Sequence record: KM389300.1
Source of the DNA: Escherichia phage CBA6
Direction: 5' to 3' (one strand)
DNA length: 25,803 bases
In this document: one piece after another, positions 442-25,049 of the stretch
Numbering within the stretch: the first letter of the stretch is position 1
Layout of the letters: every line of letters starts with the position of its first letter
Program-made: the position numbers and the translations under genes
Notes under the pieces: model-generated
The model's database searches: none
What the model saw: the letters and a program-made list of their open reading frames with translations, nothing else
What the model was told of the DNA's origin: nothing

Positions 442-960
442 ATGGCCATTTTGATATCTCCCTATTTGGGGAATATGCTTCAGACCCATCGCATCAAAAC
501 AGAAGTCAGATTTTCCGGTTTGTCACAACTTCTAACTTCTGGGGCAACTGGAATAGATTTGTTAACTGTGTTGGATGGGAAGACTCCGAACCCTTCTTCT
601 CCTACTGGTTTGGCTCCGTTCTTTAAATTATCAGATCACAAATTTCATGTGTTTCCCTATGATTCTATTCTTCCTGTGAAGGTTAATATTGTCGGATCAT
701 GGTCTGGGTCTACTTCTAATAGAACCATGATATTAGATTTTGTGGGTTCTGTGGGGAACCAGTTATCAAGAAGTCGTGATGCTAGCGTCCCGCCGCCGGA
801 CACTTTGTCTTTCATTACATTCTTCAGCGTTGACAAGGATGGGAACCTGGCGACCAACGGAGCGCAAATGAAACTGTACTCTTATGGTGGTGACTTTACC
901 ATTACCGAGGTCGTGTTGATCGCTGAGCAGGTTGTCCCACTCTATATGACTAGTATTTGA
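442..960 (+). CDS. hypothetical protein (172 aa)
   Basis: ATG at 442 with SD AAGGAGG (431..437), 9 nt after the upstream stop; Ser/Gly/Thr/Val-rich; no recognisable motif. Confidence 0.6.
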   Translation: MAILISPYLGNMLQTHRIKTEVRFSGLSQLLTSGATGIDLLTVLDGKTPNPSSPTGLAPFFKLSDHKFHVFPYDSILPVKVNIVGSWSGSTSNRTMILDFVGSVGNQLSRSRDASVPPPDTLSFITFFSVDKDGNLATNGAQMKLYSYGGDFTITEVVLIAEQVVPLYMTSI

Positions 961-1802: not shown

Positions 1803-3074
1803 ATGAACGATACACAAATAAAATGTGAAGAGACTTCATCTGGTGTCAACGATTTCGTAAACCACTGGATTGATTTAGTCAACCAAAAAACGATATTCAA
1901 CACTCTTTCACTCAGTCGTGACCAGGTTCACTGGGAAGACTATCTTTACAAACACACCCCGTGCGAACTCGTTGCCAACCCCGAAACCAATCAGCAGGTC
2001 TGGTTCAAGCGTGAAGACTACTTCGCGCCGCTGTCCAATTATGCAAATGGCCAGCAGGGCATTAATGGGAGCAAACTCCGTCAGGCCATCTGGCTCATGA
2101 TGGAGCATCTTAAAGCGGGAGGATCCCCAGATCTTATCCATGGTACTGTCGTTGGTAGTCCGCAGTCCCCTATGGCGACGGCAGTCTCACGGCATTTCGG
2201 CGGCAAGACAACCACTGTGCTGGGTGCCACTAAACCAACCACATGCATGAACCATGATATGGTTTCAATGTCAGCATGGTTTGGTAGTGAATTTAACTTT
2301 GTTGGATCTGGTTACAATAGCACCATTCAGCCGCGCTGTAAGAAACTCATTGAACAATTAAATCCAAAGGCGTATTATCTGGAATATGGCATTACATTGG
2401 ATCATACCGTTCATTCACCAGAACGCATTGCTGGATTCCATATGCTGGGTGGTGAGCAGGTTGCCAATATCCCAGACCATATCACTGATCTGATCATTCC
2501 TGCTGGTTCTTGTAATTCATGCACCAGTATCCTGACAGGTTTGGCGATGCATCCGAAACCAAATCTGAAGAATGTCTATCTGATCGGGATTGGACCTAAC
2601 CGATTAGATTTCATTGAAAGTCGTTTGCGCATTATCGGTAAGCAAGCAAACCTCCCTCACATAACTGATTTCACTCGTCGCTATCACGACAACCCAGACT
2701 ATGTGTATGGTAAGAAGGATCTTCAGCATGCCTCTAAGAGCGTTTCGTTGGCTGGCCTCCTAAGTGGTATCAGGCCAAAGAACGAGCCGGATATCGTGCT
2801 TCCTCGCTTTGAGGTACACCATTGGGATCTTCATACCACTAATTGGGTTCGTTACAACGACCTCATGGATTACCAGTGGGGGGATATTGAGTTGCATCCT
2901 CGTTATGAAGGTAAGGTCATGACATGGATACAGGAACACAAACCAGAATTGCTTAATGAGAACTCATTGTTTTGGATCGTGGGGAGCAAGCCATATCTGG
3001 AAGCGATGAAAGCTGCTTGTCCTGAATTATCAATCCCCGAACATGTCCCTGTGAATGAGTTTGTCCCCAGCTAA
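1803..3074 (+). CDS. PLP-dependent enzyme, ACC deaminase / D-cysteine desulfhydrase fold (tryptophan synthase beta-like, fold type II)
   Basis: Family motifs in order: FKREDYFAP...NGSKLRQ (KRDD...GGNKLRKLE block with candidate PLP lysine), VVGSPQSPMATAVSRHFG (GxxQSNHxR phosphate loop), IIPAGSCNSCTSILTGLA, HPRYEGKVM (DPVYTGKAM block), IVGSKP (HTGG block); 423 aa with a C-terminal extension. Confidence 0.75.
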   Translation: MNDTQIKCEETSSGVNDFVNHWIDLVNQKTIFNTLSLSRDQVHWEDYLYKHTPCELVANPETNQQVWFKREDYFAPLSNYANGQQGINGSKLRQAIWLMMEHLKAGGSPDLIHGTVVGSPQSPMATAVSRHFGGKTTTVLGATKPTTCMNHDMVSMSAWFGSEFNFVGSGYNSTIQPRCKKLIEQLNPKAYYLEYGITLDHTVHSPERIAGFHMLGGEQVANIPDHITDLIIPAGSCNSCTSILTGLAMHPKPNLKNVYLIGIGPNRLDFIESRLRIIGKQANLPHITDFTRRYHDNPDYVYGKKDLQHASKSVSLAGLLSGIRPKNEPDIVLPRFEVHHWDLHTTNWVRYNDLMDYQWGDIELHPRYEGKVMTWIQEHKPELLNENSLFWIVGSKPYLEAMKAACPELSIPEHVPVNEFVPS

Positions 3075-3084
3075 TCCATCCTAA

Positions 3085-3112
3085 ATACCCCATACGGACC
3101 AGTGTGGGGTAT
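3085..3112 (+). promoter_or_regulatory. hairpin immediately upstream of the ART-like gene start
   Basis: 8-bp stem ATACCCCA (3085..3092) pairing with TGGGGTAT (3105..3112), 12-nt loop; the G-run (3106..3109) that could act as SD for ATG 3115 lies in the 3' arm; no T-tract. Confidence 0.35.
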
Positions 3113-3114
3113 CT

Positions 3115-3564
3115 ATGAAAACCTTTCTAGAATTTTATCGCGAATCAACGCTACCTGATTTTACGAATATCGTTTTGTATCATGGGTCTAATGTTGAATT
3201 CGATATATTTGATTTTGAAAAATTTGGCCAGACTGACTCTGGTACGATGGGTGCTGGGTTTTACCTGACGGGGGATCCAGAAAAGGCACAGATCTACGCA
3301 GAAAATGCCGTGCGCTATCGTCAATCTGGTGAACCTATTGTCATGGCATTTCGTGTCAAGGCCAAGAAGACTCTTGTAATAGATTCCAACAATGTTTCGG
3401 TGTGGGAAAATAAAATGCGAGAGTTGGGGATAAAGCCTGGTAAGATACATGATAATGTGAAAGAACTTATCAACAAAGGGTTCGATTCCATAGCCTCTAT
3501 AAGTGCCAATAACGTTGAGGAAATGGTGGTGTTTAAGCCAGGGTTGGCGACCAGAGAAGCCTAA
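3115..3564 (+). CDS. putative H-Y-E class ADP-ribosyltransferase (diphtheria toxin / PARP-like minimal catalytic domain), 149 aa
   Basis: YHGS (His23); GAGFYLTGD with Tyr50 and a second Tyr61 exactly 11 residues later (as in DT Tyr54/Tyr65 and PARP1 Tyr896/Tyr907); NNVEEMVVF (Glu135/Glu136) near the C-terminus; function is inferred from motifs only. Confidence 0.5.
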   Translation: MKTFLEFYRESTLPDFTNIVLYHGSNVEFDIFDFEKFGQTDSGTMGAGFYLTGDPEKAQIYAENAVRYRQSGEPIVMAFRVKAKKTLVIDSNNVSVWENKMRELGIKPGKIHDNVKELINKGFDSIASISANNVEEMVVFKPGLATREA

Positions 3565-3599
3565 ATAGTCCAAAGCGGTTTATTCAAGAGGACATTACC

Positions 3600-4058
3600 A
3601 TGCCAATTTCGAAATTATTTGAATCTGATTCCCCAGCAGATATGCCTATCTGGACTGGTGTTCAAGACGGGACTACGATTGAATTCTTTGAGCGCGGGGA
3701 AACAGGCGCTGAAGAGATTTATGCTTCCGTACAAGGGACAGACGTCGTCCGCGCCGCCGTAGCTCTTGCTACATTTTTAGAGGACGCCCCGATTGACGGT
3801 ATCCCGTTTGAAGCCCATGTGGACCCAGAAGACCCGACGTCTATCATCATTACAGTCCAGGGTGCTGAATATACATCTTACAGTATTGAGCACGATGAAG
3901 AAACAGGGGCGCTGTTTATAGCCACGGATCTTCAATTGGAAGATGACGAAATTGAATATCTGAAACAGAATGGTCGTCTTCCGGAGTACTCTGACGAAGA
4001 ATTGGATTCTGCGTTTGATGAAGTAGACGATGAAGACGACTTTTGGGATGGGAAATAA
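3600..4058 (+). CDS. highly acidic hypothetical protein (152 aa), possible DNA mimic or partner of the ART-like protein
   Basis: ATG at 3600 with SD AGAGGA (3587..3592); very Asp/Glu-rich, ending DEVDDEDDFWDGK; 35 nt after the ART-like gene. Confidence 0.6.
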   Translation: MPISKLFESDSPADMPIWTGVQDGTTIEFFERGETGAEEIYASVQGTDVVRAAVALATFLEDAPIDGIPFEAHVDPEDPTSIIITVQGAEYTSYSIEHDEETGALFIATDLQLEDDEIEYLKQNGRLPEYSDEELDSAFDEVDDEDDFWDGK

Positions 4059-4088
4059 ACAAAGGGGCTTAATGCCCCTTTGTTTTAG
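4057..4088. terminator. bidirectional intrinsic terminator between convergent genes
   Basis: Stem AAAGGGGC (4061..4068) / GCCCCTTT (4074..4081), loop TTAAT; T-tract on both strands; sits between the + gene ending at 4058 and the - gene ending at 4085. Confidence 0.75.
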
Positions 4089-4459
4089 ATATCGTTTGTG
4101 TGTACTGTGAATCTCATTGTTACGACATCTGTTCTTTCATCCTTGTGTAATTCGAACTTCAAACCTTCCTTCAGAAGACTCGCCACCAACAATGTTTTGA
4201 ACTTTTCGACTTGCTTGTCTGTTGGGTATTTTTGAGACTTATATGCCTGTTGAAATGCGGTTAATATTTCGTCAAACCTGTGGCCACCAACAGCGTACAC
4301 CATGTCATCAATTTCAACTCCGCGATTTGCTTGGGAAACGAGTTGCTTCTTCATTTTACAAACAAAGATATCAACGGCTTTTTCAACTATCCCCATGGCT
4401 TCCCAAATCTGAGCCTGGTCAATCGTAGTCTGTAATTCTTGTGCGAAGTTCTTCATCAT
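4085..4459 (-). CDS. hypothetical protein (124 aa)
   Basis: ATG at 4459 (- strand) with SD GAGGAAGG; start overlaps the stop of the upstream - strand gene (ATGA overlap), suggesting translational coupling. Confidence 0.55.
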   Translation of the reverse strand: MMKNFAQELQTTIDQAQIWEAMGIVEKAVDIFVCKMKKQLVSQANRGVEIDDMVYAVGGHRFDEILTAFQQAYKSQKYPTDKQVEKFKTLLVASLLKEGLKFELHKDERTDVVTMRFTVHTNDI

Positions 4460-4998
4460 TTCACCTTCCTCGTTGGATATTGGTTAAAGAGTTTGCCCAG
4501 CTTGGACACATTGATAATCGTCTGAGTCTTCCAGCGCTCGATCCCCTCTGGTGTAGTCACGGTTAGGATTGAATAACCCCATATATGGGAACCATTCAGC
4601 ACAGCCGCGCTGTGCCCACCAATTTTGTCTTCCAGTTTACAAATGAAAGACTCATATTGCATCGCAGCGTTTCGACGTGCTTCTTTGACAAACAGAGCAT
4701 GGCGCTCAGGATCAGCTTTGACAATATCCGGCTTCCCAGGTATGTAAGAAGGATTCACTGCCTGGGTCAAAGAACGGTAGAGCGCATGTTTTGATTTCAT
4801 TCGTTGGTAATCTGGATCACCAAACTTGACACCAACCGAAGATGGCCACGGAGCGCACTTCTCGACGTCCCAGCCGTTGGATGCCAGATCGTCCATTATG
4901 TTCTTGATGACTTTGTTCGCGTACTGCTCAGCAGCATTCTCAGCATCAACCAGCAGAGGCTCAACTGCGATACGGACAGGAGTTTTTGGCATATTCAT
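4456..4998 (-). CDS. hypothetical protein (181 aa from the SD-supported start)
   Basis: Preferred start ATG at 4998 (MNMPKTPV...) with SD AAGGA 8 nt upstream; the alternative ATG at 5046 directly abuts the upstream stop and lies inside a hairpin; contains KHALY and ERHALF motifs of unknown meaning. Confidence 0.5.
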   Translation of the reverse strand: MNMPKTPVRIAVEPLLVDAENAAEQYANKVIKNIMDDLASNGWDVEKCAPWPSSVGVKFGDPDYQRMKSKHALYRSLTQAVNPSYIPGKPDIVKADPERHALFVKEARRNAAMQYESFICKLEDKIGGHSAAVLNGSHIWGYSILTVTTPEGIERWKTQTIINVSKLGKLFNQYPTRKVK

Positions 4999-5021
4999 GA
5001 TATAGTCCTTCAGTTCAAAGT

Positions 5022-5039
5022 AAGCCCCCGAAGGGGCTT
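5022..5039 (-). terminator. GC-rich hairpin, possible weak terminator or RNA stability element
   Basis: AAGCCCC / GGGGCTT stem with 4-nt loop directly after the stop (5047..5049) of the upstream - strand gene; downstream T-run is weak. Confidence 0.35.
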
Positions 5040-5046
5040 CAGTCAT

Positions 5047-5577
5047 TTAGATACGGGAATCCAACCATGCATTCTTTTCATTCTGCCATTCCCAAGCGGC
5101 CTGACCACCAGCCATGATAACTTCCAGAGAAGGAGTATTGTCATCCTCGCCACCGTGTAGGTCTGGGTCAAATCCATCATCTTCAGGATCGTCTTCACAT
5201 TCGTTCTGATATGCGGAATATTCAATATAATGCGCTTCGGCTTCGCAATCCATGTCTCCTAGAGCAGTCTCAAGAGTCATTTTACCTTCGGCAATCAGCT
5301 CAGCCGTTGCGTCGTCCAGACCTGCGTCTTTCGCTTCAACGAACAGTTCGTGACGTTTCTGGAAGAAAAAGAACTGCATTGCGTCGCAGTGGTTGTCGAA
5401 CTTCTGTTTGAGTTCGCAACGAACACCCTTGACAACCGGATGGTAAACCACCATGTAACGGCCAGCAGAAATTTTGTCACCGTTTATAGCAGCGCCGAAG
5501 AAGTTACCGAAGACTTGGCCTTCGCCTGCGTCGCACAGAACGGTATTTTTGTTTGCTGTTTCTGCTAAAATTTTCAT
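5047..5577 (-). CDS. hypothetical protein (177 aa) with strongly acidic C-terminal half
   Basis: Start ATG at 5577 (MKILAETANK...) with SD AAGGAAA, about 45 nt downstream of the early-type promoter; the longer ORF to 5757 is an SD-less extension; C-terminal half rich in D/E. Confidence 0.55.
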   Translation of the reverse strand: MKILAETANKNTVLCDAGEGQVFGNFFGAAINGDKISAGRYMVVYHPVVKGVRCELKQKFDNHCDAMQFFFFQKRHELFVEAKDAGLDDATAELIAEGKMTLETALGDMDCEAEAHYIEYSAYQNECEDDPEDDGFDPDLHGGEDDNTPSLEVIMAGGQAAWEWQNEKNAWLDSRI

Positions 5578-5626
5578 GATGTATTTCCTTCTCTTCAGAT
5601 TGTTGTTTGTTCGTACTACAATTAGA

Positions 5627-5655
5627 AGTATACGCCAGTTATTGAAGAAGTAAAC
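5627..5655 (-). promoter_or_regulatory. T4 early-type (sigma70-like) promoter on the - strand
   Basis: On the - strand: -35 GTTTAC (5655..5650), 17-nt spacer, -10 TATACT (5632..5627), with an A/T-rich block upstream (5656..5680); positioned to drive the gene starting at 5577. Confidence 0.5.
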
Positions 5656-5672
5656 TTTATTCAATAAATATT

Positions 5673-5885
5673 TTAATAAATTTTGAACTCTGCTCCCCTG
5701 TATGTCGCCGATCCTCGTTCTATGAGGCCGTCGGGGACAATTACCTTTGTGGGCCATCCGCCGTCCGGTGCTTTGACAGTCAGGCGTGTCTTATGATCAC
5801 CCAGCTGAATCTGTTCGTAAATCCTTCCTCTCACTATCGTCGCCCCGCCTTGGGTGACCAGCAATCTCTTGTTTACCACTTTCAT
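5673..5885 (-). CDS. small hypothetical protein (70 aa)
   Basis: Single ATG at 5885; AAGGA lies only 1-2 nt from the ATG (poor spacing) and the gene sits between a terminator and a downstream promoter, so expression is uncertain. Confidence 0.4.
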   Translation of the reverse strand: MKVVNKRLLVTQGGATIVRGRIYEQIQLGDHKTRLTVKAPDGGWPTKVIVPDGLIERGSATYRGAEFKIY

Positions 5886-5889
5886 TCCT

Positions 5890-5921
5890 TAACACCAAAA
5901 GAAAGGGGAGTTTCCTCCCCT
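5890..5921 (-). terminator. intrinsic terminator (- strand)
   Basis: Stem AGGGGAG (5904..5910) / CTCCCCT (5915..5921), loop TTTC; on the - strand it is followed by TTTCTTTTGG; lies just after the stop of the membrane-protein gene. Confidence 0.6.
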
Positions 5922-5926
5922 CTAAC

Positions 5927-6499
5927 TTATTTCTTCAGATCAGGCCACGCACCAGAGGTCGCAGTAGACCCAGCTGGGGGAGCAGACTCAAGATCGGGAG
6001 AACCCGACTGAGTAACAACAGTGGGATCTTTGTTAACCACTTTGACCCCAAACTGTTTGAGAGCATCCACAGCTTGCGCCTTCCGGCTATTGCTTTTGTA
6101 ATGGTTGTACCCCTTGATACCGAATGATGCACTAATTGCTGTCAATAGCGAAGCAGTATACCAATCAGGCGCTGTTTCAAGGGCTTGCATACCATCAATT
6201 ACTGCTTTGATGAAATCCCCTTTATGATACTCGGTGGGGAACATTAGAAGTTCCACAACCGGAGCGATCATAACAAGGATAGCGGGAACAGCCAAAACGA
6301 TTGTCCAGAATTCATCTTTCCAAGATCCGCCGACTTCGGTAATCTTAGAAAGTTCCCATTCTGAAGAAGACTTTATTGCCTCCAGTTTAACATCGTGTTT
6401 AGCCTGAACAATTTCCCGCTTATATTGCACCAAATCAGTCCCAAGATTCCAGAGTTGCTTTAGCGCCCCTGGAATCATGCTCACAAAGGGGATTGCCAT
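5927..6499 (-). CDS. membrane protein (191 aa), central hydrophobic helix; divergent from the DNA polymerase gene
   Basis: Start ATG at 6499 (MAIPFVSM...) with SD GGAG 7 nt upstream; central TM segment FWTIVLAVPAILVMIAPVV; Ser/Thr/Pro-rich C-terminus; ORF extends to 6559 but without SD. Confidence 0.55.
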   Translation of the reverse strand: MAIPFVSMIPGALKQLWNLGTDLVQYKREIVQAKHDVKLEAIKSSSEWELSKITEVGGSWKDEFWTIVLAVPAILVMIAPVVELLMFPTEYHKGDFIKAVIDGMQALETAPDWYTASLLTAISASFGIKGYNHYKSNSRKAQAVDALKQFGVKVVNKDPTVVTQSGSPDLESAPPAGSTATSGAWPDLKK

Positions 6500-6528
6500 T
6501 TTAAACTCCTTGGTCATTGAACGTTCCT

Positions 6529-6568
6529 CGGTTAAATTACGGGGACGTGCTGACGGCACGGTTAACCG
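6529..6568 (+). promoter_or_regulatory. structured leader of the DNA polymerase gene, candidate translational operator
   Basis: Inner hairpin CGTGC (6546..6550) / GCACG (6556..6560) with loop TGACG, nested in an outer stem CGGTTAA (6529..6535) / TTAACCG (6562..6568) whose 3' end abuts the SD GGAG (6568..6571); ATG at 6579. Confidence 0.4.
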
Positions 6569-6578
6569 GAGACAAACA

Positions 6579-9575
6579 ATGACTGTTTTCTATACGAACG
6601 TTGCCCGACAGGGTAACGACCTTCTGATTCGTATCGCAGACGACAACGGCAATCGCCGCATGTTGCGTAAGAAATTCGAACCCACCTTGTATTTACCCAC
6701 AGCTGATTATTCCAAAGTTGAAAAGATTGGCCTCCTCAATGAACCGTTGGTGTCTAAAAAGTTTGCATCAATGCGAGACGCTGACAACTATCTTGAGGAG
6801 TACAAGGAGGTCGAAGGGGCTGCGGTGTATGGACAAACGGATTATGCATATCAATTCATCGCCCATAGTTTTCCTGGGATGATCACACCTGATTATTCAA
6901 ATATCCACATCGCCAACGTGGATATCGAAGTGTTCTCGGCTGGTTGGCGTGACGGAGAAATGACTAAAGGTCCATTCCCACACGCAACGATTGAATCTCA
7001 CACGTTTAAAGGCAGCGAGGCGCGGGTTCGTCGTTTCCATAAGCAAGTACTGGCCAACCATGATTTCGTTCGGGAGCATTTCCCTGGTTCCTTTATTTCC
7101 AATAACGTGACTGACCAATTCCCTATAATTGACAGTAACGGTAAAATCACACAGAACATGAATGCGGCGTTCCCTATTACGCTGATACAGCTCCAAGATA
7201 TGAATACCAATAAATTCTATGTCTGGGGCATGCCGTGTTCCAAGGATCGCCATAAATTCAAATATGACCCCAATGATGAAGAAGTCGGCGGTCTTGAGGT
7301 TGAATATAAAGAATATACGACGGAACAAGATCTGCTTCGCGCCTTCTTAGATTACTGGTCGGAACGTCAATTTGACGGTTGGACGGGGTGGAACATTGAA
7401 ACGTTCGATAGCCCCTATTTGGTTGAACGAATTATGCAGGTTCTTGGTGAATCTGAAGCCCAGCGCCTCAGTCCTTGGGGTAAACTCAAGAAACGTTTCA
7501 TCAAAGACCGTAAAGGCGACGTGACTTCTTATCAATTCGTGGGTTGTCCTATGATGGACTACATGCAAGTTTACAAGAAACACACTTACACCACCCGCGA
7601 AAAATACTCACTGGACTGGATCGCTTATTGTGAACTCGGTGAGAAGAAGTTGGATTATAGTGAAAGCAAATCATTGTATGACCTTTATTTCAATGATTAT
7701 TGCAAGCATACGCGATATGGTATCAAAGACGTCAAGCTGGTGTGGCGCTTAGAACAAAAACTGCGTTTGATACAGCTGATGTTTGTATTGGCTTATCGCA
7801 CTAAATCCAACTATGAAGACGGTCTCGGCACTGTAGCACCGTGGCTGGCAATGTGCTATTATCGTCTTTATGAGAAGGGGATTGTCCCGAAAATCCAGCG
7901 CGTCTATGATGGGCCAACAGATTTTGAAGGCGCATATGTCATGGAGGTTGCCCCAGGGATATATTTCTGGGTCTTCTCTGAGGACTTAAACTCCCTGTAT
8001 CCCCACATCATACAGCAATACAACCTTGGTCCAGAGACTATCGTTTCTGATAAGCACACACGCCGTGATATTATTGAGGCCATGTGTGAGGAATTGACCA
8101 AAGCGATGAATGATATGACAACGCCGATGAATAAACGTCGTCATCTCAAAAATCTTCACGACAAGTTGCAGCGTGCTATTGATGAACGCATACAAGTTGT
8201 TGATGAATTGGTCGCGCTGGGCGAATTCCATTTTGAAACACTACGCCGATATAACGTTTCGTTTACCCCGAACGTTCAGTTCTTCAGTAATGAGAAGATG
8301 TCCTTCCTTTCCGAAATTATGCGAGGCATATACGCTGACCGTAAAGGAGAGAAAGCAACTGGCCTGAAGTATGAGCAATGGGCTGGTTGGTGTAAGGAAA
8401 TGTCTAAAGGTGATTTCCACCTTGAATCCGCCATGAAGTCTCGTTTCTACGATCCTGAATGGTATGAAGAACACAAGCACATCGATCTTGATCACCTGAC
8501 TGAAGTCATGCACAAGTGGGAAGATCTGGGGGTTGCTCAAGATACGTTACAACAAGGTCTGAAGATCTTGATGAACGCAGGTTATGGCGCAATCTCCAAC
8601 GTCTGGTTTAAAGAATACTTCAACATCAACATCGCTGAAGCAATCACCACTTCCGGCCAGCTGATCAACAAATGGAACAAACGCCACACCGATGATTATC
8701 TGAACAAACTTTGCGGCACTACTGGTCAGGATTTTGTTATCGCGGGTGATACTGACTCCAACTACATTTGCATTGAACGTCTGGTCAAGCAATTGTGGCC
8801 TGAAGAAAAGGATCATCACAAACTCGTTGATAACATTGACCAATGGATCAAAGAGAATTACCAGCCAAAAACCAGTGAATGGGCGCAGTTGTTGTGTAAT
8901 ACCATGAACGGGTTTGAGCAGCGCATGGTCTGGGAACGTGAGGTCATCGCATCGTCTGCTGTATGGCGAGCCAAGAAGATGTATTGCATGGCAGTATACG
9001 ATAGCGAAGGCATCAAGTATGAGAAGCCAAAGATCAAATTCAAAGGTCTGGAAGCGCGTAAATCTACAACGCCGGAATGGTGTCGTGAGCGTCTGGTTAA
9101 ATGCTATGAGAAAGTTCTGCTGGGGACGGAGGCTGAAGTTCAGGAATTGATCGCGGGTTATAAGAAGGAATATATGGAATTAACCGTGGATGATATTGCT
9201 CAAGCCTCTGGCGTTAGTGATATTGAGAAGTGGTTAGACGGCAACGGAAATTATATCAGTGGCACACACTTTGCTGCCAAGGCTTGTATTATGTACAACA
9301 AGCTGATAGACAAGCATGAAGACCTCGGTCTCCCGCCGATAGAATCTGGCGATAAGGTTAAAATCATTAACCTGAAACCTGGGAACCCTGTGGGGAACGA
9401 CCGCATAGCCTTCCCTGACTTCCTCCCTCCGGAGTTGGGGCTGGATAAGTGGGTAGATTACCACACCACGTTTGAAAAGACCTTCATAGAGCCGATTCAG
9501 TCTATTCTAGACGTGGTTGGTTGGTCTCACAAACGTCGAGTTAATCTGTTGTCCATGATGGGCAAGAAAGGTTGA
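6579..9575 (+). CDS. DNA polymerase, family B (T4 gp43-like), 999 aa
   Basis: N-terminus MTVFYTNVARQGN... resembles T4 gp43 MKEFYISIETVGN...; exo I motif VDIEVF; motif A DLNSLYPHII; motif C IAGDTDSNYI; start at 6579 chosen for SD GGAG (6568..6571) rather than the SD-less ORF start at 6477. Confidence 0.93.
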   Translation: MTVFYTNVARQGNDLLIRIADDNGNRRMLRKKFEPTLYLPTADYSKVEKIGLLNEPLVSKKFASMRDADNYLEEYKEVEGAAVYGQTDYAYQFIAHSFPGMITPDYSNIHIANVDIEVFSAGWRDGEMTKGPFPHATIESHTFKGSEARVRRFHKQVLANHDFVREHFPGSFISNNVTDQFPIIDSNGKITQNMNAAFPITLIQLQDMNTNKFYVWGMPCSKDRHKFKYDPNDEEVGGLEVEYKEYTTEQDLLRAFLDYWSERQFDGWTGWNIETFDSPYLVERIMQVLGESEAQRLSPWGKLKKRFIKDRKGDVTSYQFVGCPMMDYMQVYKKHTYTTREKYSLDWIAYCELGEKKLDYSESKSLYDLYFNDYCKHTRYGIKDVKLVWRLEQKLRLIQLMFVLAYRTKSNYEDGLGTVAPWLAMCYYRLYEKGIVPKIQRVYDGPTDFEGAYVMEVAPGIYFWVFSEDLNSLYPHIIQQYNLGPETIVSDKHTRRDIIEAMCEELTKAMNDMTTPMNKRRHLKNLHDKLQRAIDERIQVVDELVALGEFHFETLRRYNVSFTPNVQFFSNEKMSFLSEIMRGIYADRKGEKATGLKYEQWAGWCKEMSKGDFHLESAMKSRFYDPEWYEEHKHIDLDHLTEVMHKWEDLGVAQDTLQQGLKILMNAGYGAISNVWFKEYFNINIAEAITTSGQLINKWNKRHTDDYLNKLCGTTGQDFVIAGDTDSNYICIERLVKQLWPEEKDHHKLVDNIDQWIKENYQPKTSEWAQLLCNTMNGFEQRMVWEREVIASSAVWRAKKMYCMAVYDSEGIKYEKPKIKFKGLEARKSTTPEWCRERLVKCYEKVLLGTEAEVQELIAGYKKEYMELTVDDIAQASGVSDIEKWLDGNGNYISGTHFAAKACIMYNKLIDKHEDLGLPPIESGDKVKIINLKPGNPVGNDRIAFPDFLPPELGLDKWVDYHTTFEKTFIEPIQSILDVVGWSHKRRVNLLSMMGKKG

Positions 9576-9635: not shown

Positions 9636-9980
9636 ATGAAACTCAATAAGATTCTTCTGGTGTGTGCTCTGGCTTTCTCTACCACTGCATGCTCTACCCT
9701 TCTGGACGTTGCGTCTACTGTTGACCTCGATGCGCCGACGTTCACCAATCAGCAAGCGGTGAATAAGATGGAAGACACCATCAAGGCACATGCAGCTTTG
9801 GACAACACCACTCCTGGTCCGTTGCAAACTGTTTGCAATTATGATGATTCCATCCAGGAAGATGAAACCTATCACTGCACCACTTACGTGAAGGAATCTT
9901 CTGTGGTTCTGTATGCCGATTGCACCGAAGAGCAATGCACCGCAACGGGTTATGACAATGTGGAGAAATCTGATGAATAA
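9636..9980 (+). CDS. putative lipoprotein (114 aa)
   Basis: ATG at 9636; N-terminus MKLNKILLVCALAFSTTAC resembles a signal peptide with a lipobox-like Cys; acidic, Cys-containing mature part; the ORF track start at 9618 is TTG. Confidence 0.5.
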   Translation: MKLNKILLVCALAFSTTACSTLLDVASTVDLDAPTFTNQQAVNKMEDTIKAHAALDNTTPGPLQTVCNYDDSIQEDETYHCTTYVKESSVVLYADCTEEQCTATGYDNVEKSDE

Positions 9981-10755
9981 TCACGTTGGTCTGTATGACG
10001 CATGTTCTAAAATTGGCGGGTTATATCGCGTTCTGGTGGATGTGGATTTGACTCTGGTTGATTCCCTATCGCCGTGGGTTGAATGGTTCAATATTTCTAA
10101 TTCTAAAGCCGCTGCGGAAAATATGGGATGTCACGACTACCCATCTGAATTTCAACCAATCACCAAAGAGTGTTATATGTCACACGCTGGTGATCTGGCG
10201 ATCCTCATGCGTGAACGCGCGCATCCGGCCTGGTTAACGCGCCGTGTATTCGTTGCTGGTCAGTGGATGGATTCGCCAACAGGACGTGATCCGATGGATT
10301 GGTGGCGTATGCCTGATCTGTATTCCAGAATGTCACCACTGCCAGGGGCTGTTGAATTCCTTACGAATTTAAAGGCCGCTCTCCTTCAGAAGTTTGAGCA
10401 AGTGGAAATGGTGGCTGTTACAAAATGCGAACCGGAACACGAACGCAGCAAGCGTCAGTTCATATACCATCACTTTGAATCGTTGATTAATGGGTTCGTG
10501 AGCACGGATGAAAAGCATCTGCTTGCTGGCGATGTCCTGATCGACGACAATCCGAAGTATGTTGAGCCGTGTGCCCTGAATAACATCTTCGTCATCTTCG
10601 TCCCTCAGGGCAATTATGAAAAACTGGATCTTTCGAATTGCGAGGATATGCTTTATATTAAGCATGTAGAAGGCCAAAACCACTTTGACTTCTTGAATCG
10701 TAACCTCGATGAAGTGGTGAATCGCCTGGTTTCTCATTATCAATATGTCCGATAG
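9973..10755 (+). CDS. HAD-superfamily phosphatase, 5'(3')-deoxyribonucleotidase-like (260 aa)
   Basis: Start ATG 9973 with SD GGAG (9962..9965), overlapping the upstream stop; HAD motif I VLVDVDLTLVD (DxDxT) and motif IV GDVLIDDNP. Confidence 0.65.
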   Translation: MNNHVGLYDACSKIGGLYRVLVDVDLTLVDSLSPWVEWFNISNSKAAAENMGCHDYPSEFQPITKECYMSHAGDLAILMRERAHPAWLTRRVFVAGQWMDSPTGRDPMDWWRMPDLYSRMSPLPGAVEFLTNLKAALLQKFEQVEMVAVTKCEPEHERSKRQFIYHHFESLINGFVSTDEKHLLAGDVLIDDNPKYVEPCALNNIFVIFVPQGNYEKLDLSNCEDMLYIKHVEGQNHFDFLNRNLDEVVNRLVSHYQYVR

Positions 10756-10764
10756 GAGCACATC

Positions 10765-11070
10765 GTGCAAGAACAAAATAAAGTTGTAGAAAGCCCTGAC
10801 AAGCGTTCCGGTGACAGTGATATGGATGGTATCATTATCCATGTAAACAACTTCATCCGTAATCAGAATCCACCAACTTCCGTTGGCGCAGCGTTGGAAT
10901 TAAAACGAGTTCTGATTGAAAACGGTATGGCACCTGATGACGACGAAATTTTCTATAACTTTGATGACCAGTATAAAGTGAAGTTTGTTGAGAATGGTCA
11001 TCCGCAAGTTGCCGTGTTTTGGGCACCTTGGTTGGGTGGAGTGAGTTGGCGCATTGAGGATGCTGCATAA
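10765..11070 (+). CDS. hypothetical protein (101 aa)
   Basis: GTG start at 10765 with SD TAGGAG (10753..10758); stop overlaps the kinase start (TAATG at 11068..11072). Confidence 0.5.
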   Translation: MQEQNKVVESPDKRSGDSDMDGIIIHVNNFIRNQNPPTSVGAALELKRVLIENGMAPDDDEIFYNFDDQYKVKFVENGHPQVAVFWAPWLGGVSWRIEDAA

Positions 11071-11984
11071 TGGCAAAGATCATCGTAATCAAAGGAACCA
11101 GCGGCACGGGTAAAGGCACTCGTGTCGTACAGTTCATCGAGTGGCTCCGCACTAAGCTGAAGCCGACTGAATTGTCGTACACTGTTGGGGATAAGACGCG
11201 CTCCTTCGGCCTGAAATTTGAAGAGCTGAAGTTAATCTTCGTCGGCCAATACACAGTGTCCAATAAATCCGGCCTGGCGTCTTGGACCTCTATGGACGCC
11301 ATTCATGCTGCCACAGGCTCTGGGGATATTGCTCGCGACCTCGTCAAGGGTTGGCTGGCTCAGGGATATACCCTGGTGTGTGAGGGCGAACCTCTGATGC
11401 TGTCGGACAAGTGGCGTCCTGAATGGATGTTCAATAACTATCCGATTGATTCTTTGGCGCTGCTGTACTTTGCATATCCAGACCGCTATCAGTACGATGC
11501 CCGCATCCGTGGACGCTCTGGTAAAGAAGCGGGGGATTCCGGCTGGTCGCGCAACGAATCTTACTCCAAGGAGTTCGAGAAGTCCAAGGCTGAAATGCTG
11601 GCGCTTGGCTGGAATGTTGCCGTGGATGATTACAGTGGGCAAGACGTTTTGTACCACCAAACGGCTACGAACACCCAAGAATTCAAGACTGGGAATGATA
11701 GCGAATTGGCTATGTTGCCGTTCGACGCCCCGTTGTGGGTGGTGGGTAATGCTATCTATCATCAGCTTGGCACAGTTTGCCGCGCTAACAATCTGATGTC
11801 GAAAGACTTCTACGGCTATTGCGAAACCAATCCGATGACGCGTGAAGTCGGCGGTCAGGATCCTTTGGCTCACAGAGTGCCTGAGAAGCCGCAGAAGGCA
11901 TCCAAAACTAAAAACAAGGCCGTCGCCAAGGAAGAACCAAAGACCTCATCCGTGTCCCTTCTGGGGCTAATGCGTAAGGTGTAG
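11070..11984 (+). CDS. P-loop kinase, NMP-kinase-like Walker A; candidate nucleic-acid (5-hydroxymethyl-pyrimidine DNA) kinase
   Basis: N-terminal Walker A GTSGTGKGT (the GxxGxGKGT form typical of adenylate/NMP kinases) at residues 9-17; 304 aa; C-terminal tail KTSSVSLLGLMRKV matches the polymerase tail. Confidence 0.7.
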   Translation: MAKIIVIKGTSGTGKGTRVVQFIEWLRTKLKPTELSYTVGDKTRSFGLKFEELKLIFVGQYTVSNKSGLASWTSMDAIHAATGSGDIARDLVKGWLAQGYTLVCEGEPLMLSDKWRPEWMFNNYPIDSLALLYFAYPDRYQYDARIRGRSGKEAGDSGWSRNESYSKEFEKSKAEMLALGWNVAVDDYSGQDVLYHQTATNTQEFKTGNDSELAMLPFDAPLWVVGNAIYHQLGTVCRANNLMSKDFYGYCETNPMTREVGGQDPLAHRVPEKPQKASKTKNKAVAKEEPKTSSVSLLGLMRKV

Positions 11985-11987
11985 ATA

Positions 11988-12191
11988 ATGAAAAAGATGT
12001 CTAAATATTTTGTGTTCGTCGGTCTGGTGATGTGCTTTTCAGCTATGCTTGTCGGTGTTATGAAATATTTGGGCATCGTTGAATTAGACTCAACCGAAAT
12101 ATTGAATGTTTACGCGTTATATTATTCGGGCGGTGTCGCTTTATTAACGCCGTTCGTTTACAACATAATTGAAAGTTTCAAAAGGAATTAA
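11988..12191 (+). CDS. small hydrophobic protein (67 aa), probably two TM helices
   Basis: ATG at 11988 with SD AAGGTG (11975..11980); hydrophobic segments FVFVGLVMCFSAMLVGV and GGVALLTPFVYNII. Confidence 0.45.
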   Translation: MKKMSKYFVFVGLVMCFSAMLVGVMKYLGIVELDSTEILNVYALYYSGGVALLTPFVYNIIESFKRN

Positions 12192-12192
12192 A

Positions 12193-12543
12193 ATGAAAAT
12201 TCTTATTCCACGCAATGCCATTGCTATTGCTGTTGACTATCGTGGCGATGCCAATATGATTAACGCTGTCCGATATTATCCGGAACAGAATAAAATCATT
12301 CCCCAATTCCAGCTGAACACCAATCCATCTTCTAAAGATTTCGGTGCATGGCGGCAAATTGGGTTGGCACGGACTCAGGTTAATGCCCAGCATTATATTT
12401 CTGAAAAAACGAAAACCGCCAAGCAAATCTGGGTAGTATCCAATGACCGTCGGTTCCTTCCAATTTGGTCTTTGGGCCAGCCCGTTTTAAACCCTGAAGA
12501 TATCCAACTCGAAGCCGAGGTGAAGGATGACGCATCTATCTAA
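12193..12543 (+). CDS. hypothetical protein (116 aa)
   Basis: ATG at 12193 with SD AGGA (12183..12186); the ORF track start at 12169 is TTG. Confidence 0.5.
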   Translation: MKILIPRNAIAIAVDYRGDANMINAVRYYPEQNKIIPQFQLNTNPSSKDFGAWRQIGLARTQVNAQHYISEKTKTAKQIWVVSNDRRFLPIWSLGQPVLNPEDIQLEAEVKDDASI

Positions 12544-13762
12544 AATGCCGACAGGTTATACGCCTCCGGCTGAATGGAAGTACCCAATTGATTTGTCAAT
12601 CGATTATCGTAAGCCAGAGAATCGGATGTATCTGCTCAAAGCATGGGTGGAGGCGCTGTCGTATACGGAAGAACACAACCAACAAGTTCGTCTGATGGAT
12701 TATGCGATTGAAGTCACTGAAGGCATTACGCAGCTTGAGAAGATCGAGCGCAAGATCTGGATGGCGTTCCTTTGGGGCTGTTGTTATAATGGGATTGGCC
12801 CATGGACGATTTATAGTGAGTTTCCTGTACCGCCTCAGTCACCACAAGAGTTCAAGCGATTCTGTGATTGGTATAACCTGAACTTCGAGCGTATGCGATT
12901 CGATACTGATTGCCGCTATCGCAAATCGAAGATGATCCCGTGTGTTCAGTCCTACATTGATTGGCTGGCTGGTCGTACTCAGATGGATGCTTTCCGTCCG
13001 TTGTTGGAGACTAAACTGCAAAGTGATCAATTCGTTAAGCTATGGGACACGGCTATGGGGTGGAAATACTTCGGTCGCCTGAGCGCCTGGAACTTCCTGG
13101 AAGCCCTGAACATGGTATTCGGCAACATGTATCAGATCGACGTCCCTGGGTTCATGTTGCGTGACCGTGATGGTAGTGAGTCCAACCGCAACGGCGCGGC
13201 ATTCTTGTCAAACCGTGACGACTGGGTGACCAAGCACGGAAAGAAAAAGATCAACGGCTGTCCTATCACCGATGAAGAATGCGACATCCTTGAGGCTGAT
13301 CTTGAACAGGCATTCAAAGATTGTGTCGCCGAGTTTGGTCACATCACGTTCATCAATCGTTTGAACTTTGAGACTTCCGGCGCTTGTTGGCTTAAGAAAT
13401 TCTTCCGTCTGAAAAACACTCGTTACATCGGGTGGGATGCCGAGCGTACTTGGGATGAGATCGACTACATGGAACGCATCTGGCCTGAGTACTCCTGTAA
13501 GGCATTATGGGAAGCCCGTTCCCTCTGGCTACCAGATACCCTGTTATGCGAAAAAGCTCCTGCAGGGCACGTTCCTGGCGTCCAGAAGTGGAAGATGCCT
13601 GTGTTCTTTGAGACGGGTGTTCCTCTACATATATGGCACCTGCAGCAGGGTACGCGTTGGGAACCATCTGAGGTTTACACTAATCTGAAAATGCCCGTCC
13701 GGAAGATAGATGACAATCCGAAGTCGACCAGTGTAAACCTCATGTCTTTGTTGAAACGATGA
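12527..13762 (+). CDS. hypothetical Trp-rich enzyme (411 aa); candidate DNA base-modifying transferase carrying the polymerase-like C-terminal tail
   Basis: ATG at 12527 with SD GAGGTG (alternative in-frame ATG at 12545); no motif I can name; C-terminal tail KSTSVNLMSLLKR matches the polymerase and kinase tails; two genes downstream of the kinase. Confidence 0.6.
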   Translation: MTHLSKMPTGYTPPAEWKYPIDLSIDYRKPENRMYLLKAWVEALSYTEEHNQQVRLMDYAIEVTEGITQLEKIERKIWMAFLWGCCYNGIGPWTIYSEFPVPPQSPQEFKRFCDWYNLNFERMRFDTDCRYRKSKMIPCVQSYIDWLAGRTQMDAFRPLLETKLQSDQFVKLWDTAMGWKYFGRLSAWNFLEALNMVFGNMYQIDVPGFMLRDRDGSESNRNGAAFLSNRDDWVTKHGKKKINGCPITDEECDILEADLEQAFKDCVAEFGHITFINRLNFETSGACWLKKFFRLKNTRYIGWDAERTWDEIDYMERIWPEYSCKALWEARSLWLPDTLLCEKAPAGHVPGVQKWKMPVFFETGVPLHIWHLQQGTRWEPSEVYTNLKMPVRKIDDNPKSTSVNLMSLLKR

Positions 13763-23643: not shown

Positions 23644-24036
23644 ATGGCTATCGTTGACGAAAGCAATTTGATGGAATATGCCCTGAGACACTATATCACT
23701 GCTGGTGTCTCACGGGATGATTTGATGGTAGACATTCAGCGAATTTCGCTAATTAATCAATCATTGAAGAGATTTGTGCCAGGGAAAAGTCCTCGTGTGC
23801 TTATCAATCAATTGATTATTCTTTTCAATACTTTCGAAACTGAAGCTGTGTGTCGAATGCTGGTGTTGAAAACGGATAAGAACCAACATCCTCGTCTAAA
23901 GGCAGCGCTGTTGACGTTAGGAGTTTGGAGAGATGATTTATGTTCCGGTTCATACGAACCAGATAACGAGCTGATGATGGCTCTGAACAACGATTTGGAT
24001 GAGTGGAGGAAACCATGCCAACAATCACAGTATTAG
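23644..24036 (+). CDS. hypothetical protein (130 aa)
   Basis: ATG at 23644; no clear SD; 3' end overlaps the next gene by 22 nt. Confidence 0.45.
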   Translation: MAIVDESNLMEYALRHYITAGVSRDDLMVDIQRISLINQSLKRFVPGKSPRVLINQLIILFNTFETEAVCRMLVLKTDKNQHPRLKAALLTLGVWRDDLCSGSYEPDNELMMALNNDLDEWRKPCQQSQY

Positions 24037-24824
24037 TCGCGCCGGAAGTTGTCCGCAACAAACCGGAAACCGAACGCAATCATGTCGTGACGGGTGTTGC
24101 AAAGGGTTGGCAAAAAACCAGCCTAAATCAAGATCCTGATGAGATCCTGACCGAATGTAAAGGTCTTGATGCGTTGCTGACCAAAAGTAATCTGCAAGCG
24201 GACGGTGTCACCAAAGTTGATCCGACCAAGCCAGTAGGTTTCCAGGTTTCTTATGAAATCCATGATCCGACTGCTGTTCTTACCACAGGTCTGACCATTA
24301 CTCCGGCTACGGCCAGCGGGGAAATAGGCCAAATCGTTGAATTGCTGGCCACTGTTGCTCCTGTGAACGCAACATATCAAGGAGTGAACTGGTATTCTGG
24401 CGACCTGACGAAGGCGATCCATATCGGCGGTGGTAAATTCAAACTGCTTCAGTCTGGTTCTGTTACAGTTTATGGTGTTACTGTAGAAGGAAATCACACC
24501 GATTCCACCGTCATTACCGTCGCAGGGTTGTTGTCGTTGACAACTGACCTCATCGCCACCAAAGATGTTACTGCTGGTCAGGATGGCACTTTTAGCGTTG
24601 TGGCTGCGGGTGGGACAACCCCTTACACTTATGTGTGGCACTTCTCTGATGTTCCTGGCGGTGCGGGTGCGGTGATTGATGCCAGTGCTAACACGACTGC
24701 TGCTACTGCCAATTTGGTCATCACTGCAGTTGAAGCATCAGATGAAGGCGAATATTGGTGTGTAGTTTCTGATGCGGATGGTCATTCTGTAACATCCACC
24801 CGTTGTGAAATGGCTGTGGTGTAA
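24015..24824 (+). CDS. Ig-like domain protein (269 aa), Big_2-like plus Ig-like domains
   Basis: ATG at 24015 with SD GGAGG (24005..24009); Big_2-like stretch ATASGEIGQIVELLATVAPVNATYQGVNWYSGD...VTVYGVTVEGNHTDSTVITV; second Ig-like domain with DEGEYWCVV; Thr/Ala/Gly-rich linkers. Confidence 0.6.
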   Translation: MPTITVLVAPEVVRNKPETERNHVVTGVAKGWQKTSLNQDPDEILTECKGLDALLTKSNLQADGVTKVDPTKPVGFQVSYEIHDPTAVLTTGLTITPATASGEIGQIVELLATVAPVNATYQGVNWYSGDLTKAIHIGGGKFKLLQSGSVTVYGVTVEGNHTDSTVITVAGLLSLTTDLIATKDVTAGQDGTFSVVAAGGTTPYTYVWHFSDVPGGAGAVIDASANTTAATANLVITAVEASDEGEYWCVVSDADGHSVTSTRCEMAVV

Positions 24825-24827
24825 TTT

Positions 24828-25049
24828 ATGAAGAGCTTCCAGGATTACCTAGAAGACTCTTCGGCTCCGGCCACCACTACCGCTGATGTGGGGAAACCCG
24901 AAGGCGGTATGGTTCAAGAACCTGTCAAGAGACCGAAAGATCTTGAAGAAGAGTCAGGGTTTAAAAAGATCTTCGGTAATATATTCAAAGACCTTGACCT
25001 ATCCAAGGCCAGGAAATGGAATTTCAGGACAGGCAAATATGACGATTAA
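24828..25049 (+). CDS. small hypothetical protein (73 aa)
   Basis: ATG at 24828, 3 nt after the upstream stop; charged and Pro/Lys-rich; followed by a strong terminator. Confidence 0.45.
   Translation: MKSFQDYLEDSSAPATTTADVGKPEGGMVQEPVKRPKDLEEESGFKKIFGNIFKDLDLSKARKWNFRTGKYDD

Follow-up and report, generated by a model that had tools for sequence, protein, structure and literature searches.

The DNA examined here, a stretch of 25,803 nucleotides of Escherichia phage CBA6 (KM389300.1) that is referred to throughout as the window, represents a portion of the genome of a CBA120/ViI-like Kuttervirus (Ackermannviridae). The subject of this work is the open reading frame (ORF) at positions 3115–3564 of its (+) strand, which starts with ATG and encodes a protein of 149 aa (16.8 kDa, pI 5.45). 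A sequence-only reading had proposed that this ORF encodes an ADP-ribosyltransferase (ART) of the diphtheria-toxin/PARP kind with a His-Tyr-Glu (H-Y-E) active site, and had placed it in the T4 lineage; the latter assignment has to be corrected, as the window is from Ackermannviridae. Positions 2800–4300 are 98.7–99.1% identical to many Kuttervirus phages of Salmonella and E. coli, and the same gene is found as orf229 of CBA120, Vi01_183 of ViI and gp116 of Sajous1. Public records mostly label it hypothetical, with two entries as "ADP-ribose transferase", several as "putative structural protein" and one as "DarB-like antirestriction protein", and UniProt lists the ortholog of phage Mutine as an "ART-PolyVal-like domain-containing protein". 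The labels clash in PP889471 (phi1_146021), PP974338 (FKP10) and PQ863687 (CAU_YEP3), where 'DarB-like antirestriction protein', 'ParB C-terminal domain' and 'structural protein' are used; these odd labels probably stem from profile matches to neighboring domains of polyvalent proteins. The features of the locus are collected in Table 1.

Table 1. Features of the ART locus; positions are those of the window.
Feature	Position	Strand	Basis or remark
Upstream gene for an enzyme dependent on pyridoxal phosphate (PLP)	1803..3074	+	Pfam PALP match; ViI gp226 ortholog; context, outside the ART unit
Late promoter CTAAATA with initiation region CCCCATA	3081..3094	+	Annotated in the relatives SPTD1 and LIMEstone1
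RNA hairpin, 11-bp stem and 6-nt loop	3085..3112	+	Sequence and folding
Shine-Dalgarno sequence GGGGU, 5 nt upstream of the ATG	3106..3110	+	Sequence; ribosome-binding site of phage Menlow annotated at the same place
ART-PolyVal coding sequence, 149 aa, standalone	3115..3564	+	Pfam, model, conservation
Residues 1-10, MKTFLEFYRE, capsid-targeting-sequence-like propeptide, possible cut after E10	3115..3144	+	Likeness to T4 internal proteins
Y22-H23-G24-S25, beta-1 NAD-binding His motif	3178..3189	+	Conservation; exotoxin A alignment
G46-A-G-F-Y50-L-T52, beta-2 Tyr motif	3250..3270	+	Conservation; exotoxin A/PARP4 alignment
Y61, placed 11 residues after Y50 as the nicotinamide pocket's second aromatic residue	3295..3297	+	Conservation; exotoxin A alignment
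D124 in G-F-D-S, equivalent of PARP 'G-Y-D-S'	3484..3486	+	Conservation; PARP4 alignment
E135 and E136 codons	3517-3522	+	Sequence
E136, predicted catalytic glutamate	3520..3522	+	Conservation; PARP4 alignment
Second late promoter, CTAAATA, for the acidic gene; overlaps the ART stop codon	3561..3567	+	Sequence; annotated in SPTD1 and LIMEstone1
Acidic 152-aa partner, co-conserved and co-packaged	3600..4058	+	Sequence; virion proteomes of orthologs
Bidirectional intrinsic terminator closing the two-gene late unit	4062..4081	.	LIMEstone1 terminator annotated at the same place

A comparison of the protein with Pfam identified the ART-PolyVal family (PF18760) at 41.1 bits (gathering score 31.2, E = 4e-10), the match spanning residues 19–142 on profile positions 7–127 of 140. 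Ortholog clusters of the protein carry a precomputed PF18760 assignment as well; the score for the related DUF3990 was just below the cut-off, and the Pfam scan gave no match to ADPrib_exo_Tox or ART. A word-indexed homolog search returned Ackermannviridae orthologs only, and sequences of at least 60% identity are confined to that family. Finding the wider family required an exhaustive profile search with a hidden Markov model (HMM), which yielded 1,908 relatives, including many giants of 2,000–7,000 aa with up to eight matched stretches apiece, as well as standalone proteins of about 120–160 aa.

Residue conservation was then counted across 189 distant domain copies, with C-terminal positions resting on fewer aligned copies. 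H23 is kept in 189/189, G24 in 183/189 and S/T25 in 186/189, while in the second motif, 176/185 copies have G46, 178/188 have G48 and 172/188 have Y50. An aromatic residue (Y, W or F) occupies position 61 in 185/187 copies, A58 is near-invariant, and D124 is kept in 74 of the 75 copies aligned there. At position 136, 45 copies are aligned, of which 28 have E, 12 have D and three have Q, so that 43 carry an acidic residue or Gln. The motifs of the sequence-only reading, namely YHGS with H23, Y50, and Y61 eleven residues later, are therefore all present at the residues that it had named, and conservation among homologs upheld its His and Tyr. Its offer of Glu135/Glu136 as the catalytic acid stood for E136 but failed for E135, which is replaced by H, R or V in orthologs. 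At an overall identity of 60%, the orthologs retain all of the H, Y, E and aromatic positions together with the GxG and D-loop motifs.

Relationship to proteins of known structure was sought by sequence and by fold. A search of the PDB with the single protein produced a spurious match only; with a 31-member family profile, 50 of the 52 matches fell within the H-Y-[EDQ] division, and these included exotoxin A (E = 0.004), PARP4, PARP10, PARP12, PARP16, diphtheria toxin and the tankyrases, with E-values that are marginal (0.004–1). In these alignments "YHGT...GFYIAGDPALAYGYA" of exotoxin A was placed on "YHGS...GFYLTGDPEKAQIYA", so that H23 aligned with the His of YHGT (His440) and Y61 with the second Tyr of the exotoxin A stretch 'PALAYGYA'; the Tyr motif G46–T52 aligned with exotoxin A GFYIAG and PARP4 GSGIYFS. 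Near the C-terminus, "GYDSV...DDEFVVYK" of PARP4 aligned with "GFDSI...VEEMVVFK". The triad of PARP4 is HGS / YFS / DDE, that is, H-Y-E (PMC7955679). Since E136 aligns with the Glu of this triad, and D124 with the Asp of PARP G-Y-D-S, E136 would be the equivalent of the catalytic Glu, and D124 was rejected as the catalytic acid for the same reason. The predicted catalytic residues are thus H23, Y50 (with Y61) and E136.

An AlphaFold2 model built on the ortholog alignment (predicted local distance difference test [pLDDT] 81.4, predicted template-modeling score 0.77) placed the H on strand 1, the Y on strand 2 and the acidic residue on the catalytic strand, and displayed the split-beta-sheet ART fold of ART-PolyVal; its low-confidence parts are residues 5–10 (pLDDT <50) and residues 38–48, the conserved loop ahead of GxGFY. 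Structure matches of the model were to ART folds only, PARP15, the tankyrases and diphtheria toxin foremost, with the following scores: PARP15, 7.5; the pre-ejectosome protein of cyanophage A4 (9k3a_B), 7.5; SAIP toxin, 7.3; tankyrases, 6.3–6.4; diphtheria toxin and its homologs, about 6.3; the RES toxins ParT and MbcT, about 6.1; AcrIF11, 6.0; Tpt1, 5.7; Arr, 5.4; and DarT, 3.1. The fold comparison with diphtheria toxin, PARP, DarT and Tpt1 agrees with the class first proposed. A Foldseek search of viral models returned ART-PolyVal domains in polyvalent proteins, in an N4-like virion RNA polymerase (RNAP) and in a MuF/capsid-protease fusion. In the ARTs of polyvalent proteins, the H has been assigned to strand 1, the Y to strand 2 and a D to strand 5, and these ARTs have been put in the Tox-ART-HYD2 clade, near the PARPs and diphtheria toxin (PMC5512222). 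The multidomain context of the polyvalent proteins is absent here, as the protein is a single domain; this concerns the context of the family and not the domain itself.

Three other assignments were considered and rejected. T4 Alt, ModA and ModB belong to the R-S-E class, with which the polyvalent-protein ARTs have been contrasted (PMC5512222); the triad of the present protein is H-Y-E, and it has no match to the two Pfam families named above, so the earlier statement that it differs in class from the T4 enzymes is borne out. The protein likewise did not qualify as Tpt1/KptA (H-H-h clade), judged by a second catalytic His together with a match to the PTS_2-RNA HMM, or as DarT, judged by a DarT HMM match or close structure together with an adjacent macrodomain antitoxin. 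Taken together, membership of ART-PolyVal and the H-Y-E reading are well supported by sequence and model, and the gene very probably encodes a diphtheria-toxin/PARP-type (H-Y-[ED]) ART that is predicted to depend on NAD+. As a separate observation, the PADLOC models PDC-M13A/B, PDC-M42A and PDC-M10A, which describe candidate bacterial anti-phage systems, match residues ~18–89 with E-values down to 3e-9; because of these matches, hosts also seem to use relatives of this family, from its DUF3990-like side.

Published proteomics on orthologs, from two independent preparations, locates the protein in the virion. LIMEstone1 ORF173, the positional ortholog (64% identical), and ORF174, the ortholog of the downstream acidic protein, were reported as "confirmed structural proteins" by electrospray-ionization tandem mass spectrometry (PMC3296691). 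In CsCl-purified virions of Sajous1, gp116 (96% identical) was detected with 10 spectra and gp115, the acidic partner, with 31, and the virion list lacks gp117, the adjacent upstream PLP enzyme (PMC10892097). The ViI annotation describes both genes as 'phage associated protein'. ART-PolyVal domains have been predicted to be injected, Alt-like effectors, and myoviruses often package ARTs (PMC5512222, PMC9503650). We conclude that the protein is very probably carried inside the virus particle.

The sequence-only reading had stated that the protein has no targeting domain. This does not hold, as its orthologs are virion proteins and residues 1–10, MKTFLEFYRE, resemble the capsid-targeting sequence (CTS) of T4. 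This decapeptide lies outside the Pfam match and is poorly ordered in the model, and the protein continues from S11 as STLPDFTNIVLYHGSNVEFDIFDFEK; K2, T3, F4 and L5 are kept in at least 90% of orthologs. The T4 internal proteins (IPs) IPII and IPIII start with MKTYQEFIAE and IPI with MKTFKEF (read from NC_000866). In IPIII, ten N-terminal residues are enough to direct a protein to the head; positions 4 and 7 control targeting and positions 8 and 10 processing, and the prohead protease gp21 cleaves after Glu (PMC9026906). A strict motif, M-K-T-[YF]-x-E-F-x-x-E, found ipI, ipII and ipIII only in 20 kb of T4, and the ART and one 73-aa ORF only in the six frames of the 25.8-kb window. Similar N-termini occur in proteins with no relation to ARTs, among them LIMEstone1 virion proteins confirmed by mass spectrometry, namely ORF080 (MKPFIQYFNE), ORF082 (MSKPSFLQFMQE, with ..SFLQFMQE) and ORF101 (MFMSSFIDWLN), and in Kuttervirus GG32, where gp084 starts with MKPFIEYFKE and has a CTAAATA promoter upstream and gp083 starts with MAIPSFLNFLEE. 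A loose form of the motif gave three matches in the six frames of 110 kb of LIMEstone1, against 0.10 in shuffled sequences, and all three sit 2–4 residues past the start of confirmed virion proteins. When these proteins were compared with the ART family using hhalign, the decapeptide alone aligned. Head morphogenesis of the T4 type is represented by homologs of the protease gp21, the scaffold protein gp22 and the capsid protein gp23. From these sequence comparisons, we consider capsid targeting by residues 1–10 a reasonably probable function.

The peptide also touches other genes. The pattern [TSP]-F-[LI]-x-[FYW]-[FLM]-x-E is shared at the N-terminus by Ackermannviridae virion proteins that are confirmed by mass spectrometry and have no assigned function, by the ART and by the T4 internal proteins; the genes concerned lie at 8789-9358, 10520-11011 and 23878-24327, all on the (-) strand, of LIMEstone1 segment 50001-100000, and at 3001-5382 and 5434-5979 of the GG32 segment, in which the orthologs of ORF082 and ORF081 are fused into one protein of 793 aa. 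Because several confirmed virion proteins share it, the peptide suggests a family-wide capsid-targeting signal and unrecognized head cargo proteins in Ackermannviridae. The 73-aa ORF with the only other strict match in the window (24828-25049, +) starts with MKSFQDYLEDSS, sits directly behind the structural gene with an Ig domain (24003-24824), and has a strong terminator hairpin at its end. Relatives such as Det7 list it as a hypothetical gene, and it may encode a second capsid-targeted cargo protein.

Expression signals upstream of the ART gene are strongly conserved. The SPTD1 record has late promoters right upstream of both the ART and the acidic gene ('Kuttervirus late gene promoter'), as does that of LIMEstone1 ('putative late promoter'), with an identical offset, and CCTAAATACCCCATAC is invariant in eight phages of four genera. 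By comparison with T4 late promoters, the late transcription start is predicted at about 3092-3094. In the hairpin at this site, ATACCCCA(TAC) pairs with (GTG)TGGGGTAT over 11 bp, with about -18 kcal/mol and a z-score of -2.95 against shuffled sequences, one in 200 of which folds as well. The GGGG of the Shine-Dalgarno (SD) sequence, at 3106-3109, is in the 3' arm, which confirms the earlier proposal that the SD is buried in a hairpin, and the 5' arm overlaps the late promoter/initiation consensus CTAAATACCCCATA. This consensus also precedes the acidic gene in other genera, and the complementary GTGTGGGGTAT, which holds the SD, is found at the ART gene only. The stem is invariant in eight phages of four genera, while the loop, the upstream sequence and the proteins (~62% identity) diverge. 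Folding predicted an unpaired probability of 0.00 for the SD in read-through RNA; the hairpin is unable to form in RNAs that begin at 3092-3096, in which the predicted per-base SD accessibility is 0.04-0.5. The Rfam scan gave no family anywhere in the window, and a literature search found no transcriptome or transcript-mapping study of Ackermannviridae.

A late promoter inside a hairpin that sequesters the ribosome-binding site is the mechanism known for the T4 genes e, soc, 49 and I-TevI (PMC3014915). As in gene e, the late promoter is in the 5' strand of the helix and the SD in the 3' strand, and the layout of the two leaders is near-identical, almost base for base (TATAAATACCTTC...AGGAGGTATTATG in T4 and CTAAATACCCCA...TGGGGTATCTATG here). 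The T4 leaders differ from the present one in that they belong to other genes of another phage family, and ours is known from sequence and folding. The upstream gene is the ortholog of ViI gp226, the PLP enzyme of the 5-NeOmdU DNA-hypermodification pathway. If this gene is transcribed before the late genes, read-through into the ART gene is to be expected, and gating of its translation would be sensible. A role of the hairpin as an intrinsic terminator was rejected for the window, where no T-run follows; in Taipeivirus, the hairpin is followed by TTTTAT and is an annotated terminator, and a secondary attenuator role may exist. A further CTAAATA, at 12001, was rejected as a promoter: it falls within a coding sequence, and chance could account for it.

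With respect to the acidic gene, its late promoter reads CTAAATACCCCATA in Limestonevirus, Agtrevirus and Taipeivirus; in the window (3561-3600) it has diverged past the heptamer (CTAAATAGTCCAAA), and ViI reads CTAAATATCCCATA. Because of this divergence, CCCCATA seems to be an initiation region that is preferred without being required. The thymidine-hypermodification genes of the window are all on the (+) strand, at 1803-3074, 9913-10755, 11070-11984 and 12527-13762, around the DNA polymerase gene (6477-9575). They make up a ViI-type set consisting of the PLP enzyme (ViI gp226), an NT5C-like nucleotidase, 5-hmdU DNA kinase 2 (HMUD2, 560 bits) and an amino-acid:DNA transferase (ADDT).

From these results, we propose that the gene encodes a late-made, capsid-packaged and injected ART that takes the role of T4 Alt with a different catalytic class, a reading to which we assign a probability of roughly 0.55. 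The steps would be as follows: (i) the late promoter CTAAATA (3081-3087) would limit expression to the late phase; (ii) read-through RNA from the upstream DNA-modification gene would fold the 11-bp hairpin and bury the SD, and late transcripts, which would start inside the 5' arm, would be unable to form it, so that only late transcripts would be translated; (iii) residues 1–10 would act as a T4-type CTS and direct the protein to the prohead core, where a gp21-type prohead protease might remove them after E10; (iv) the virion would carry the ART together with the downstream acidic protein; and (v) at the next infection, the ART would be ejected with the DNA and would ADP-ribosylate a host macromolecule ahead of phage gene expression, the target most likely being a protein of the transcription/translation machinery or of a defense system. 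The basis of this proposal is computational, comprising family membership, predicted fold, conserved triad, hairpin and promoter motif, and the presence in purified virions is taken from the published proteomics on orthologs; from these data we infer the catalytic activity, the function and cleavage of the CTS, the transcription start, the ejection and the target.

Several observations weigh against this proposal. We found no experimental report of NAD+ use in the literature for any member of ART-PolyVal. The LIMEstone1 detections of ORF173 and ORF174 consist of one unique peptide each, with 11.8% coverage for ORF173 (PMC3296691), and low spectral counts can mean contamination, as the authors of the Sajous1 work point out. 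Regarding the N-terminal peptide, the loose motif was derived post hoc from the sequences, and only its specificity constitutes a test. A MAFFT alignment placed F4, F7, Y8 and S11 on an 'F-x-x-W-F-x-x-S' that precedes the core in polyvalent copies; the CTS resemblance is for this reason partly inherited within the family, and by this alignment the residues specific to a T4-like signal are M-K-T, E6 and E10 only. This reservation is countered by the ART-unrelated virion proteins with such N-termini, by the specificity of the loose motif, by the hhalign result and by the T4-type head proteins described above. In some orthologs, residue 10 is replaced by D, G or H, so that cleavage by the prohead protease may not be universal. 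As for the hairpin, its invariant stem offers no compensatory changes, its 5' arm is also constrained as a promoter/initiation consensus, with CTAAATACCCCATA recurring at the neighboring gene, and in the predicted late transcripts the SD is freed only partly.

The target is one point at which other explanations arise. The same enzyme, delivered in the same way, could act on a substrate other than protein, either nucleic acid (host DNA, as for DarT, or RNA) or NAD+ itself by hydrolysis, which we regard as unlikely. We give the same low weight to a pairing of toxin and inhibitor, in which the acidic protein would bind the ART and keep it silent in the late-infected cell and the capsid until ejection parts them, and to the idea that the acidic protein is independently injected as an anti-restriction DNA mimic. 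The two genes are adjacent and syntenic in four Ackermannviridae genera, and both proteins are late and found in virions (the partner as LIMEstone1 ORF174 and Sajous1 gp115). The partner has a pI of 4.05 and 41 D+E against 6 K+R, for a net charge of about -35; it carries an invariant acidic C-terminal D-x-x-D-F-W tail, and with a mean column identity of 81% it is more conserved than the ART, all of which would suit such a pairing. What speaks against it is that the partner has its own late promoter, that its homologs are limited to Ackermannviridae, and that the nearest standalone metagenomic ARTs (P0022 and P0024) have no such neighbor, their contexts being uninformative; P0022 and P0030 have no cultured relative outside Ackermannviridae. 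A fold search with the model of the partner (pLDDT 70, moderate confidence) gave no informative match, and none to known ART inhibitors or DNA mimics. The acidic protein could thus be an ART inhibitor, a DNA mimic or another cargo protein, and pairing is compatible with an injected ART and does not compete with it. It also has an invariant L6-F7-E8. Its ViI ortholog Vi01_184 reads 'MHRYRARMCPRCR-SPCNVLRRR' where all other orthologs read 'YASVQGTDVVRAAVALATFLED' (alignment columns ~41-62) and then returns to the consensus, which suggests a compensated frameshift pair or a sequencing error in the record.

Localization is the point on which another explanation turns, according to which the ART acts at a late stage in the cell that makes it, for instance on host or phage proteins while particles assemble, and is found in virions incidentally. 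The late promoter and the low peptide counts in one proteome would fit this, and T4 ModA and ModB are intracellular and unpackaged (PMC5512222). We nevertheless consider it decidedly unlikely, as the protein was found in two independent virion preparations, one of which lacks the adjacent PLP enzyme, as its N-terminal peptide is common to other virion proteins and T4 internal proteins, and as the family domain sits in virion-delivered proteins. Very unlikely in our estimation is a combined scheme in which an injected nucleic-acid ART hits host DNA or RNA at entry and spares phage DNA containing 5-(2-aminoethoxy)methyl-uridine, a modification made by genes of the window, with the acidic co-cargo as in-capsid inhibitor or DNA mimic and hypermodification as self-immunity. 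That the ART fold is catalytically dead and has a structural or scaffolding role in the head can be largely discounted, given that the H, Y, aromatic, E, GxG and D-loop elements are all retained across orthologs of 60% overall identity.

The proposed late-made, injected ART can be set beside several known systems. It shares with the ART-PolyVal family ('N4-ART', Tox-ART-HYD2) the HMM match, the H/Y/acidic active site, the predicted fold and the C-terminal motifs G-[YF]-D-[GS] and E-x-V-x-F-x-P, as well as predicted delivery with the DNA (PMC5512222). It differs in being a single domain of 149 aa instead of a module in a polypeptide of 1,000-7,000 aa, in having Glu as its acid where the prototype was described with Asp, and in its delivery, for which the family relies on fused modules (MuF, virion RNAP or metallopeptidase) and the present protein apparently on a T4-type N-terminal peptide. 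T4 Alt resembles it in late synthesis, T4-type head packaging, a probable cut by the prohead protease and the predicted action on the host as the DNA enters. Unlike the present protein, Alt has 682 aa, is of the R-S-E class, with a relation limited to the superfamily fold, has a propeptide that is not an IP-type CTS, and has known targets (RNAP alpha and others). Homologs of Alt are confined to genomes of ~162-170 kb, with 30 Salmonella-phage records against about 154 with the ART, and none was seen in Kuttervirus-sized genomes. The T4 internal proteins have in common with it the N-terminal decapeptide, small size, late expression and the same type of head morphogenesis module, whereas their mature parts are unrelated and are not such enzymes; IPI* is an inhibitor of the restriction enzyme GmrSD.

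Diphtheria toxin, exotoxin A and the PARPs share the H-Y-E triad, the 11-residue spacing between the two Tyr residues and the order of secondary structures, and PARP4 in addition the motifs 'TD.G..G.G.Y' and 'GYDS...E.VV[YF]K'. The phage protein is, however, much smaller and without receptor-binding, translocation or regulatory domains, and the sequence similarity is marginal (E about 0.004-0.07 with the family profile). The phage anti-CRISPR protein AcrIF11 (AcrF11 structure) has no detectable sequence relation to the ART, is expressed early from the incoming genome and has no known packaging.

Two further observations concern the wider gene content. Elsewhere in Ackermannviridae, a 'putative tRNA processing enzyme' stands beside a 'putative ADP-ribose binding protein' in the ViI core-gene list, and LIMEstone1 ORF110 is a short nadV-like ORF; there may be a wider NAD+/ADP-ribose toolkit in this family that could interact with the ART. 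The window also encodes, at 442-960 (+), a protein with an Sf6-type tail-needle-knob domain (Pfam Phage_tail_NK, E = 9e-30), whose LIMEstone1 ortholog (ORF169) is a confirmed virion protein as well; in the Sajous1 table, gp119, labeled 'putative tail needle knob', has 16 spectra. A tail needle knob is an unexpected podovirus-type module in a myovirus.

The kind of enzyme encoded by this gene is already recognized, as evidenced by the Pfam family, the UniProt label of an ortholog and the two GenBank entries named "ADP-ribose transferase". The ART gene, its targeting peptide and the hairpin are unmentioned in the main texts of PMC5512222 and PMC9503650 and in the 2024 review of Ackermannviridae, and the review does not mention ADP-ribosylation. 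Phages of this family (CBA120, ViI, LIMEstone and >200 relatives with sequences) find wide use in biocontrol and therapy. If the proposal is correct, each virion would deliver an enzyme of the PARP/diphtheria-toxin class into Salmonella, E. coli, Klebsiella or Dickeya, and a host-takeover or anti-defense step like that of T4 Alt would be carried out by a different catalytic class. Among the representatives of ART-PolyVal, the protein would also be the smallest and the easiest to work with, and as such an entry point to the substrates of a very large, uncharacterized family. The shared N-terminal peptide suggests that T4-style capsid targeting reaches Ackermannviridae; if so, it would identify further cargo and offer a tag for packaging foreign proteins.

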